9,293 nucleotides of DNA. Source: a virus. Lineage: Duplodnaviria > Heunggongvirae > Uroviricota > Caudoviricetes. The position numbers and the translations under genes are program-made. The notes beneath the pieces are model-generated. The model saw only the letters and a list, made by a program, of their open reading frames with translations. It searched no databases and was not told the DNA's origin. Below are positions 2,747 to 6,086 of this stretch, in pieces. The stretch lies in IMG/VR virus record IMGVR_UViG_2554235177_000006; one strand, given 5' to 3'. Within the stretch, counting starts at the first letter, position 1. Every line of letters starts with the position of its first letter.

Positions 2747-2944
2747 ATGCTAAAACAGCAGGATATGACAGAAGCCGCCAGAGTGGTGTTTAATGAATTA
2801 AGCGTTACCGACCCGGCGACAGTCAGGGAGATTGCACAGAATACTTACCTTTCACGCGAACGCTGCCAGTTAATACTGACCCAGCTTGTTATGGCGGGTC
2901 TGGCAGACTATCAGTTTGGTTGTTACAGACACCTTCAGTCCTGA
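2747..2944 (+). CDS. Hypothetical small protein (65 aa), possibly helix-turn-helix; alternative start at ATG 2624 would give 106 aa
   Basis: ORF in the Q-S cargo region; ATG 2747 follows a purine-rich AAGGGAAAAAG stretch. Segment TVREIAQNTYLSRERCQLILTQL looks HTH-like by eye. Start ambiguous. Confidence 0.4.
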   Translation: MLKQQDMTEAARVVFNELSVTDPATVREIAQNTYLSRERCQLILTQLVMAGLADYQFGCYRHLQS

Positions 2945-2956
2945 AGGCTTTTTTAT
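2932..2956 (+). terminator. Putative intrinsic terminator after the 2747-2944 ORF
   Basis: 6-bp stem CCTTCA/TGAAGG with 4-nt loop, then CTTTTTTATTT; overlaps the stop codon of the preceding ORF. Confidence 0.5.
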
Positions 2957-2972
2957 TTGTGGTAAATGGGCG

Positions 2973-2980
2973 GCTGGTGG
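2973..2980 (+). other. Chi octamer GCTGGTGG
   Basis: Exact match read in sequence. Confidence 0.9.
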
Positions 2981-3257
2981 GTGTGGTGGTTGTTGCTTTC
3001 CCGTTGCTGAAAAAGAAAACGCCAGACTGTTAGCCGGGTATCAGTTAGCGGGAGAAATTTTTAAATACTTCACAATTCAGGCGGTTGACTGTTGTCTGGT
3101 TTGCGGGGAGTTTGTTAAAAGAAACTGGCATGGTGAATCCCCCTGTGCGGAGGGGCAATCAGCGAGTAGGTATATGGGATAATCGCGGATTCAGGTGCTG
3201 GTACTGAATTCACCGGGAGGCACCCGGCACCATGCAATGGCACATAGCGCCACTCTC

Positions 3258-3294
3258 CAGCCCCTCTCCGGAGGGGCTGTTTATATTGATTTTG
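3258..3294 (+). terminator. Intrinsic terminator (GC-rich hairpin plus T-rich tail)
   Basis: Perfect 9-bp stem CAGCCCCTC/GAGGGGCTG with TCCG loop (3258-3279), then TTTATATTGATTTTG. Confidence 0.6.
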
Positions 3295-3313
3295 TCAGAT
3301 GTGAGTAAACTCC

Positions 3314-3649
3314 TTATGGACTTTGTTGTTTTAGCCCATAAGGACATATTTGCAGAGTGCAACGGTTATTAAAGCATTCATTCAATACGTTATCTGTATT
3401 TGTAGGGCATTCCTGGCTGTTTTTGATTAAATTCCAGAATGTTTTATTGAATGGTACTACGTTGTAAATGGTTACAGGTAGCACTTTGTTATTGAGCATG
3501 ATACCTGTGTGAGTCAGTGTAAATATACTTTCAGGAGGTAAGAAAGCATCCGATTGATACCAGATTATTAATTTTATTTTACTCCATATGACTGAAAAAG
3601 ATATTCCGCATGATGGCTGGATAACTGTATCAATCACAATCCACTTCAT
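3314..3649 (-). CDS. Hypothetical protein (111 aa) in an AT-rich island, opposite to the late operon
   Basis: Clean 336-nt ORF in strongly AT-rich DNA, where stop codons are frequent, so unlikely by chance. AGGAA about 5 nt upstream of the ATG; candidate sigma70 promoter upstream on the minus strand (TTTACA, about 15-16 nt spacer, TATACT). No recognisable family. Confidence 0.4.
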
Positions 3650-3909
3650 TTAGTTTCCTTGTTTATGCCTTGCTGGTGATGTTCTGAAAAGTATAAATGA
3701 TATTTTTGATTGTAAACCATAGAGCAGAATTATTTTTCTGATGTTGTTTATTGTTTATTTAAATGCAGGGTGGTTTATATCTCGTCTTGTAGTTTATCCA
3801 TGCATATCTGCTTGATGATGAGGTTTTTATTTAAGGTATGGTTTTGTGTTTTTTCTGTATTACATGTCAGGTATTTTAAAGAATCATTTTTCAGATGGTG
3901 GAAAGAACC

Positions 3910-4405: not shown

Positions 4406-4621
4406 ATGTACCAGATGGAAAAAATCACAACAGGTGTGTCATACACCACGTCAGCGGTGGGAACGGGCTACTGGTTCCTGCAGTTGCTGGACAGGGTTTC
4501 CCCGTCTCAGTGGGCGGCAATAGGCGTGCTGGGGAGTCTGCTGTTTGGGCTGCTGACATATCTGACTAACCTGTATTTCAAAATCAAAGAGGACCGGCGT
4601 AAGGCGGCGCGGGGAGAGTAA
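4406..4621 (+). CDS. S: Class II holin / pinholin, phage 21 S21-like, with dual start motif
   Basis: 71 aa from ATG 4406, with a second in-frame ATG at codon 4 (4415) giving 68 aa, the S21-71/S21-68 arrangement. Core GYWFLQ...[15 protein letters not shown]...[11 protein letters not shown](K/R)[10 protein letters not shown] closely matches S21 as I recall it. Confidence 0.85.
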
Positions 4622-5552: not shown

Positions 5553-6086
5553 ATGAACACCAAAATCAAATACGGCCTGTCGGCTGCCGTTCTGGCGCTG
5601 ATTGCCGCTGGTGCGCCTGCGCCTGACATTCTCGACCAGTTTCTGGATGAAAAGGAAGGCAACCACACCACGGCATACCGTGATGGTGCAGGTATCTGGA
5701 CCATCTGCCGTGGTGCCATCATGGTGGATGGCAAACCTGTCGTTCCGGGCATGAAGTTGTCGAAGGAAAAATGCGACCAGGTTAACGCCATTGAGCGTGA
5801 TAAAGCGCTGGCGTGGGTGGAGAAAAACATCAGAGTGCCGCTGACCGAACCCCAGAAAGCGGGGATCGCGTCATTCTGTCCGTACAACATTGGTCCCGGT
5901 AAGTGTTTCCCGTCGACGTTTTACAGACGAATTAATGCTGGTGATCGAAAAGGTGCCTGCGAAGCGATTCGCTGGTGGATTAAGGACGGTGGCAGAGACT
6001 GCCGTATTCGTTCAAACAACTGTTACGGTCAGGTATCCCGTCGTGACCAGGAGAGCGCGCTGGCGTGCTGGGGTATCGACAGATAA
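5553..6086 (+). CDS. R: SAR endolysin (T4-lysozyme-like, GH24; R21-like)
   Basis: N-terminal weakly hydrophobic Gly/Ala-rich segment (YGLSAAVLALIAAGAPA) typical of a signal-anchor-release domain; catalytic E-x8-D-x5-T spacing in EGNHTTAYRDGAGIWT. Confidence 0.9.
   Translation: MNTKIKYGLSAAVLALIAAGAPAPDILDQFLDEKEGNHTTAYRDGAGIWTICRGAIMVDGKPVVPGMKLSKEKCDQVNAIERDKALAWVEKNIRVPLTEPQKAGIASFCPYNIGPGKCFPSTFYRRINAGDRKGACEAIRWWIKDGGRDCRIRSNNCYGQVSRRDQESALACWGIDR
5971..5978 (+). other. Chi octamer GCTGGTGG
   Basis: Exact match read in sequence. Confidence 0.9.

Follow-up and report, generated by a model that had tools for sequence, protein, structure and literature searches.

The question raised by this locus is what, if anything, is encoded between positions 2957 and 3294 of a 9,293-nucleotide stretch of phage DNA (the whole stretch is referred to below as the window). 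A sequence-only reading of the window had described the interval as a terminator-bounded unit of about 300 nt with no convincing ORF, and had proposed a small RNA (sRNA) or a leader-peptide locus in the Q-to-S cargo site. The analysis below addresses the position of the interval in the prophage, the identity and structure of its RNA, its likely start and end, and its relation to known prophage sRNAs.

Genomic context

The gene order in identical E. coli DNA is DUF968, RusA, Q, a 65-aa ORF, the interval 2957-3294, iraM, holin and lysozyme. The locus is the Q-to-lysis cargo ('moron') site of a lambda-like prophage. The flanking features are as follows.

1845-2534: antiterminator Q (annotation of identical DNA in E. 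coli chromosomes)
2747-2944: hypothetical 65-aa cargo ORF (annotated; phrog_331, E 5e-36)
2932-2956, + strand: intrinsic terminator of the 65-aa ORF, stem 2932-2947 followed by the T-run CTTTTTTATT
3314-3649, - strand: iraM (anti-adapter), convergent (annotation)
4406-4621: holin (annotation)
5553-6086: lysozyme (annotation)

A terminator scan listed 17 terminator-like sites in the window versus 10.2 ± 3.2 in shuffled sequences. Both + strand terminators of the sequence-only reading were recovered (2932-2947 with its T-run; 3258-3279 with a U-rich tail). The first is the left boundary of the interval and lies outside the sRNA. The terminators stand, but the single transcript of about 300 nt that they had been taken to bracket does not, as the RNA comprises only the last ~160-190 nt. 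The interval is made up of two parts and is not one unit: the remnant of a DUF3927 gene (2959-3033) and an sRNA gene (~3092-3294).

DUF3927 remnant and mosaic junction

Two features lie in the upstream part.

2959-3033, + strand: remnant of a DUF3927 (PF13064) gene, 5'-truncated, reading VVNGRLVGVVVVAFPLLKKKTPDC and then a stop; small hydrophobic protein
2973-2980, + strand: Chi site, at a mosaic junction

A DUF3927 gene normally stands ahead of the STnc100 sRNA, and the segment 2959-3033 is what remains of that gene, its decayed 3' end. The segment is called 'DUF3927 family protein' by PGAP in copies 100% identical to the window, and its 24-residue product matches Pfam PF13064 with 32 bits (cut-off 25) over profile positions 32-53 of 53. 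The absence of a convincing ORF is correct only insofar as the remainder is a truncated gene; the remnant itself had been overlooked. The relative L272, which carries a full 43-aa DUF3927 gene, matches the window without a difference over ~2981-3236 and has unrelated sequence further upstream, and in Stx2 phages the homology to the window spans 2602-2984. Because the Stx2 homology ends at 2984 and the L272 identity starts at ~2981, the window is a recombinant with its junction at the Chi site (GCTGGTGG), which the sequence-only reading had rightly listed. Judged from these alignments, the 5' half of the DUF3927 gene was lost through recombination next to Chi.

Of 51 tblastn hits, about 42 have a small DUF3927 ORF on the same strand, 50-130 nt upstream of the sRNA, and the PasD1 and PasD2 loci (see below) are among them. 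L272, L273 and L274 carry the gene in full, while the sRNA of the window is preceded only by the 24-codon C-terminal remnant. The sRNA gene appears to travel with DUF3927, a linkage seemingly not described before. A type I toxin-antitoxin relation, with DUF3927 as the toxin and the sRNA as the antitoxin, was considered and rejected. In a crude test the energy of the duplex between sRNA and DUF3927 mRNA was no better than that of shuffled sequences (7 of 40 and 19 of 40 shuffles at least as good), and the relation is unsupported because the sRNA has no excess complementarity to the mRNA.

Identification of the sRNA

When the window was compared with all Rfam families, a single strong match was obtained.

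3099-3288, + strand: full-length match to STnc100 (RF02076), 132.4 bits, E 1e-29, model positions 1-206 of 206

The gathering cut-off of RF02076 is 47 bits. According to the annotation of identical copies, the match sits between Q/pR' and the lysis genes. The RNA 3128-3288 folds at -69.5 kcal/mol (z = -2.96), with none of 200 shuffles as good, and its minimum-energy fold recovers the helices P0, P1, P3 and P4 described below together with the terminator; the segment 2957-3098 gave no fold signal against shuffles (z = +0.32). A tRNA or degenerate tRNA was rejected, ARAGORN having found 0 tRNA or tmRNA genes in the window. The RNA-family scan proposed with the sequence-only reading has thus returned STnc100 and no tRNA, and the small RNA suggested for the cargo site is borne out by a full-length, high-scoring match.

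The segment 3128-3288 (3099-3288 by the Rfam model) is assigned to an STnc100-family sRNA gene with a probability of about 0.85, as the sense member among the sRNA genes of this prophage site; the confidence in its mode of action is lower than that in its identity. The idea of an RNA was right, but the element is not new, because STnc100 is already catalogued as a prophage sRNA family.

STnc100 ranks among the most frequent bacterial sRNA annotations, with no function assigned (PMC9029176). Strain EDL933 contains 11 copies, one of which (STnc100_4) was seen on a Northern blot, and ribosome footprints were reported on some of its copies (PMC5331693). The sRNA EcOnc27/sRNA103 overlaps an STnc100 annotation downstream of stx2B, and STnc100 copies adjoining stx2 have been linked to clinical outcome (PMC12711010). 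The same 163-nt sequence as in the window is found in 2,786 of 5,426 complete E. coli genomes, in up to 11 places per genome, and at an identity of at least 99% in 1,933 records. None of the RefSeq rows inspected carried an RNA feature on the sRNA sequence, and an antisense pseudo-CDS is often laid over it by PGAP. For annotation, this means that an sRNA present in about half of the complete E. coli genomes goes unmarked as RNA and is often masked by a spurious antisense pseudo-CDS.

Coding potential of the interval

A protein or leader peptide could be read from the TTG frame 2886-3182, from the antisense frame 3115-3243 or from a 14-codon Trp-rich ORF. These frames exist, the antisense frame is annotated in many genomes as a partial 'hypothetical protein' (pseudogene) over the sRNA, and the footprints on EDL933 copies (PMC5331693) might be read in the same direction. 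However, neither 2886-3182 (+) nor 3115-3243 (-) belongs to a Pfam or PHROG family. The former (98 aa) is present, as had been noted together with its lack of a credible start, and a search there for a conserved protein, which had been named as an observation that would overturn the RNA reading, yielded no Pfam or PHROG family. It also reads across the terminator, and passes the DUF3927 remnant in a different frame. Substitutions in the structured core are compensatory for RNA helices, and the core varies in length from ~95 to 141 nt.

The Trp-rich ORF does open at ATG 2966 with MGGWWVWWLLLSRC and a stop, and it lacks an RBS, as had been noted; the leader-peptide role assigned to it does not hold. 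It is out of frame with DUF3927, its ATG belongs to the portion missing from L272, and no same-strand gene follows because iraM is convergent. A leader peptide or attenuator was rejected on these grounds and on the missing fold signal of 2957-3098. Overall, a coding function of these frames is very unlikely beside the STnc100 assignment.

Structured core and pseudoknot

The part of the RNA that is shared among relatives is given below, with the helices as found in the window and the pair changes counted over the family.

3128-3235, + strand: conserved structured core, 108 nt (own covariance model R1, 101.7 bits)
3128-3135 with 3228-3235: P0, double changes in 6 of 8 pairs
3139-3143 with 3149-3154: P1, bulged A3151 and loop UGUGC, double changes in 4 of 5 pairs
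3158-3163 with 3197-3202: P2 (pseudoknot), assessed by a register-free pairing test
3188-3194 with 3204-3210: P3, double changes in 7 of 7 pairs
3213-3217 with 3223-3227: P4, loop AGGCA, near-invariant, in part since the search motif covered P4

Both GC-rich hairpins of the sequence-only reading exist. The first is CCCCC/GGGG at 3139-3143 with 3149-3154; the second, CCGGG/CCCGG, lies at 3213-3217 with 3223-3227 and had been placed ~9 nt too far to the right (3222-3236).

Homologues were gathered by two exact core motifs, so that P4 and the conserved unpaired bases are biased towards invariance. The set comprised ~110 species-representative genome loci and more than 120 viral contigs, and the genera with the core include Kosakonia, Enterobacter, Klebsiella, Raoultella, Citrobacter, Trabulsiella, Buttiauxella, Erwinia and Pantoea. 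Conservation is confined to 3128-3235; the sequence 5' of 3128 and that 3' of 3236, terminator included, is unconserved. With a covariance model made from 36 diverse cores, 136 matches were obtained in 100 sources (the window and 99 genome loci), and pairs were counted in 128 distinct sequences. The helix partners were paired in 81% of cells versus 71% in shuffles and 42-49% when the partners were slid. The covariation score was 0.297 versus 0.118, and the observed value was reached by none of 500 shuffles. The covariation and structure check across relatives that had been called for thus came out in favour of a conserved fold. In P1 the family loop is UNNGC, and a variant GCGGC...GC-A-CGC replaces the usual CCCCC...GG-N-GGG. 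A role as a CsrA decoy was rejected, since the GGA in the P1 bulge is unconserved (A, U or C).

The pseudoknot is formed by the 9-nt loop of P3, which pairs with a segment beginning 4-5 nt past P1. Counted in the model-fitted alignment, this pairing reaches only 30%, because the helix is unmodelled and its register shifts; the register-free test was used instead. By this test the helix has a mean of 6.0 contiguous bp versus 4.2 for shuffled loops, and it reaches at least 6 bp in 73% of the sequences versus 10% of the shuffles. Dozens of differing sequence pairs are involved. The Rfam structure of STnc100 lacks the pseudoknot, and it begins 29 nt before the first helix.

These data also bear on the idea that the sequence is conserved as DNA only, as a patch of homology for recombination between mosaic lambda-like phages. 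Mosaic junctions do fall at Chi and at the core edges (2981-2984, 3236/3237 and ~3279-3284), and identical cores are found with different tails. Against this, covariation keeps the pairing in P0, P1, P3 and the pseudoknot, relatives are expressed and bound by Hfq, and recombination at the core may result from the core being conserved. Conservation as DNA alone is scarcely credible, and the core is treated below as part of an RNA.

Probable promoter and 5' end

The region just upstream of the core contains a putative promoter.

3092-3121, + strand: putative sigma-70 promoter, -35 TTGTCT at 3092-3097, 18-nt spacer, TG at 3113-3114, -10 TAAAAG at 3116-3121

Between the -10 element and G3128, the first base of P0, there are 6 nt. 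The promoter of PasD2, a published sRNA of EPEC, has the same geometry (TTGACT-18-TAAAAA-7-G), and the RNA-seq-estimated start of PasD2 (NC_011601 position 741157) is the G homologous to G3128. Because the promoter geometry and this mapped 5' end agree, the sRNA would start at about G3128 and be ~160 nt long. Among 180 non-redundant upstream regions of the wider family, 96 have a TANNNT whose last base lies 5-6 nt ahead of the first P0 base, and the peak of TTGAY is another 29 nt upstream. From this positional enrichment it follows that most members are independent sigma-70 units starting at the P0 base.

The window and other E. coli-type copies have a weaker version of the promoter. Against the consensus this promoter is weak, its -10 element TAAAAG being without the final T, and a consensus promoter scan did not list it in the window. 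The RNA could therefore be processed, in the manner of a 3'-UTR-derived sRNA, from a longer transcript, either the late transcript from pR' or the upstream DUF3927 mRNA. A same-strand DUF3927 ORF in most hits, PasD1 and PasD2 included, would fit such processing, and the Rfam model begins 29 nt before P0, which would allow a 5' end close to 3099. In the window, however, DUF3927 is truncated and lies just past a terminator, yet the sRNA is intact; throughout the family, -10 and -35 motifs are enriched at these positions, and the 5' end of PasD2 falls where its promoter predicts. Processing is accordingly held to be quite unlikely, and it would alter how the RNA is made and not what it is. Transcription of the STnc100-type sRNA from its own promoter remains the preferred reading.

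Linker and terminator

Downstream of the core, two further elements complete the gene.

3236-3257, + strand: variable linker of 22 nt, AAUGGCACAUAGCGCCACUCUC; candidate target-pairing (seed) region
3258-3294, + strand: intrinsic terminator of the sRNA, stem-loop 3258-3279 (9 pairs, 7 of them G-C) with the U-rich tail UUUAUAUUGAUUUUG

The stem at 3258-3279 is the top-ranked terminator in the window and is followed by TTTATATTGA. Its U-tail is interrupted (UUUAUAUU) and is poorer than those of typical Hfq-dependent sRNA terminators. Linkers and terminators differ among copies with identical or near-identical cores. In PasD, the seed UGUGAG and the RIL-seq chimeras of PasD1 map to the segment equivalent to the linker of the window. 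Because it varies between copies with the same core and because the PasD seed and chimeras map there, the linker is likely to be the target-pairing element.

Comparison with known prophage sRNAs

STnc100 (RF02076), first listed in Salmonella and present in multiple copies in EHEC and Salmonella prophages, has the same helices, the same type of terminator and the same prophage location as the sRNA of the window. In strain Sakai, convergent pairs of Hfq-bound sRNAs occupy the moron site downstream of pR' in eight prophages (PMC4104026; review PMC7873438), the antisense members being the anti-sRNAs AgvB and AsxR (PMC4104026). EcOnc27 was found to bind Hfq by CRAC (PMC7873438). EcOnc27/sRNA103 and the sense members of the convergent pairs occupy the same site as the sRNA of the window, between the Q/pR' cargo and the lysis genes.

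AgvB and AsxR share this prophage site and are usual neighbours of STnc100; they differ from the sRNA of the window in being on the opposite strand, only 51-60 nt long and unrelated in sequence. Neither gave a match in the window in the Rfam scan at E values up to 1, and in the positive control locus L214, AgvB was found abutting STnc100. A convergent anti-sRNA partner, present in that control, was rejected for the window, where it is missing.

PasD1 and PasD2 (homologues of EcOnc13 in EPEC E2348/69) are abundant sRNAs with Hfq-dependent stability, RIL-seq partners and a length of 172-173 nt (PMC8550237), and PasD and STnc100 have been reported as related (bioRxiv 10.64898/2026.05.13.724894). 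Their loci have DUF3927 upstream, as in STnc100 relatives. They have in common with the window P0, P3, the P2 pseudoknot and the layout of core, linker with seed, and terminator. They score 29 bits with our own covariance model and fall below the Rfam cut-off. PasD is without the P4 hairpin, which the window keeps, and its P1 loop is shortened; the PasD linker is 47 nt long with the seed UGUGAG, whereas that of the window is 22 nt long and has no UGUGAG. Membership of the window sRNA in PasD by sequence or seed was rejected on the missing UGUGAG and the retained P4.

IpeX (DLP12) and StxS (a short pR' transcript) are likewise prophage sRNAs of the Q-to-lysis region. Identity with IpeX was rejected because the DLP12 Q-nmpC-essD region of K-12 gives no Rfam match at the gathering score, which separates IpeX from STnc100. 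RNAs of the StxS type arise at pR'/tR', which would lie here at ~2541-2625, outside 2957-3294.

Proposed mode of action

Most probably the sRNA has its own sigma-70 promoter, from which transcription starts at G3128. The nascent RNA would fold at once into the 108-nt pseudoknotted core, followed by the 22-nt linker, and transcription would end at the intrinsic terminator 3258-3279. Published relatives are discrete, Hfq-bound RNAs of ~170-190 nt, and the stability of PasD depends on Hfq. By analogy with them, the sRNA may act in trans, pairing with mRNAs of the host or the prophage in an Hfq-assisted manner. The pairing would presumably involve the variable stretch made up of the linker and the terminator's 5' side. 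If the linker is the seed, targets would share a motif complementary to CACUCUCC. The conserved core could serve as the common scaffold.

The core might instead act in cis, as a sensor or attenuator that controls read-through of the terminator in the late operon. The pseudoknotted four-helix core with near-invariant unpaired bases in many genera and the terminator after it are compatible with such a role, and L008, L009, L014, L033, L050, L051 and L053 have an RBS and an ORF 25-60 nt past the core with no terminator. However, the ORFs downstream of these leader variants belong to unrelated phage families, and the next gene in the window is convergent. In most members a promoter of their own is positioned for a start at P0, and relatives are found as discrete sRNAs that bind Hfq and have many partners in trans; moreover, terminators and linkers are not conserved alongside the core. 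Control in cis is considered unlikely, and an sRNA acting in trans is preferred. A riboswitch was rejected, as the conserved core is followed by terminators or by unrelated PHROG/DUF phage ORFs and not by a consistent gene set. An antiterminator RNA like put of HK022 was likewise rejected, since the relatives terminate efficiently and give discrete sRNAs.

A pseudoknotted core conserved to this degree is uncommon among sRNAs that work by base pairing alone, and it suggests an extra function. It is proposed tentatively, and is on balance doubtful, that the core, with P0-P4 and with junction and loop bases that hardly vary, works as an independent functional module. If it were true, the core could dock a protein, a ligand or the transcription or translation machinery. 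Temperate phages of Enterobacterales would then reuse it as a scaffold with exchangeable 3' cassettes of seed and terminator, and also in tandem arrays and as the 5' leader of phage mRNAs. STnc100 and PasD would in that case represent a modular, programmable phage RNA family and not ordinary Hfq sRNAs. What is added here to a known family is modest: a pseudoknot, a transcription start placed on the first P0 base, a 3' cassette that can be exchanged, and the linkage to DUF3927. As a starting point for work on function, these additions offer a pseudoknotted scaffold beginning at the first base of the RNA, a variable linker as the likely specificity element, and the company of DUF3927.

The iraM neighbourhood

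Loci with convergent pairs have an abutting anti-sRNA, whereas the window has the convergent iraM instead. The end of iraM lies 35 nt past the stem of the sRNA terminator, and the block 3070-3700, comprising the sRNA and iraM, recurs as one piece in three phage records with 96.8% identity. The iraM side is the place where related prophages have the convergent anti-sRNA.

Relatives of the sRNA core

The STnc100-type core also occurs as an mRNA leader, since a sub-group of cores with the P1 variant GCGGC..GC-A-CGC has a small phage ORF and its ribosome-binding site within the next 25-60 nt, in place of a terminator. The ORFs 3' of these cores belong to differing PHROGs/DUFs (phrog_204, 7311, 3722). 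Tandem arrays of 3-5 STnc100-type units at a spacing of about 250 nt were found in other Enterobacterales (e.g. Superficieibacter); every unit has its own promoter-like -10 and a variable linker, and a terminator is present in at least one unit of the L026 array. A DUF3927 ORF recurs upstream of STnc100/PasD cores, PasD being the related EPEC sRNAs: about 42 of 51 hits have it on the same strand at a distance of 50-130 nt. It encodes a small, hydrophobic protein of 43-52 aa with a basic tail at its end. Mentions of the DUF3927 family are very scarce in the searched literature, and it is essentially unstudied.

Features at homologous loci and viral contigs (L-numbers) and in the window
L008 2315-2443, minus strand, GCGGC-variant core
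L009 4084-4214, minus strand, GCGGC-variant core
L033 1533-1655, minus strand, GCGGC-variant core
L014 1787-1922, GCGGC-variant core
L050 3696-3818, GCGGC-variant core
L051 980-1102, GCGGC-variant core
L053 1733-1855, GCGGC-variant core
L026 6323-7018, minus strand, tandem array
L092 5406-6576, minus strand, tandem array
L025, L041, L119, L135 and L166, further tandem arrays
Window 2959-3033, DUF3927 ORF
L272 1436-1567, DUF3927 ORF
L273 959-1117, DUF3927 ORF
L274 1062-1220, DUF3927 ORF

Separately, the related viral contig L165 carries a C4 antisense RNA and isrK pair in three tandem repeats (9709-11209, minus strand; Rfam, above cut-off).

Sequence upstream of the sRNA

A bidirectional terminator, AAAAAACCACCGCCAGGTGGTTTTTTTT (2596-2621, both strands), lies shortly past the stop codon of Q (2534). 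The interval 2535-2625 gave weak Rfam matches below the cut-off, to Phe_leader (plus strand) and STnc370 (minus strand). It is where pR' and tR' would be expected, and thus also a short transcript from the late promoter that is StxS- or 6S-like. Between tR' and the sRNA interval is a 65-aa ORF (2747-2944, phrog_331), common to many Stx2-converting phages at 92-94% identity, with a TrmB-type helix-turn-helix match that stays below threshold (19.4 bits vs 25.6).

Over its 9.3 kb the window contains eight Chi sites (GCTGGTGG), six of them on the plus strand; the expectation from shuffled sequence is 0.41 ± 0.63. Stx2-phage-like sequence meets L272-like sequence at a mosaic junction that coincides exactly with the site at 2973-2980.

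Chi sites in the window
466, 650, 2656, 2973, 5971 and 6609, plus strand
1056 and 1108, minus strand

Just upstream of the sRNA, the block TCACAATTCAGGCGGTTGACTGTTGTCTGG (3070-3099) is kept among E. coli-type copies. Within it, TTGAC is flanked by an imperfect inverted repeat (CAGRC ... GTCTG), both arms of which change in concert in some relatives; the repeat may serve as an operator or form a small hairpin.

Antisense strand and iraM

In many RefSeq genomes the strand opposite the sRNA core carries a PGAP call of an 'incomplete hypothetical protein' pseudogene (3118-3243, minus strand). The frame is without family support, and the annotation is probably an artefact of the absent ncRNA feature. 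The sRNA and the convergent iraM, the RssB anti-adapter gene, recur as a single block (3070-3700) in the phage records vB_EcoS-733R4, -716R1 and -813R8 at 96.8% identity. The minus strand of the sRNA terminator has no U-tract, so iraM transcripts may extend antisense across the sRNA.
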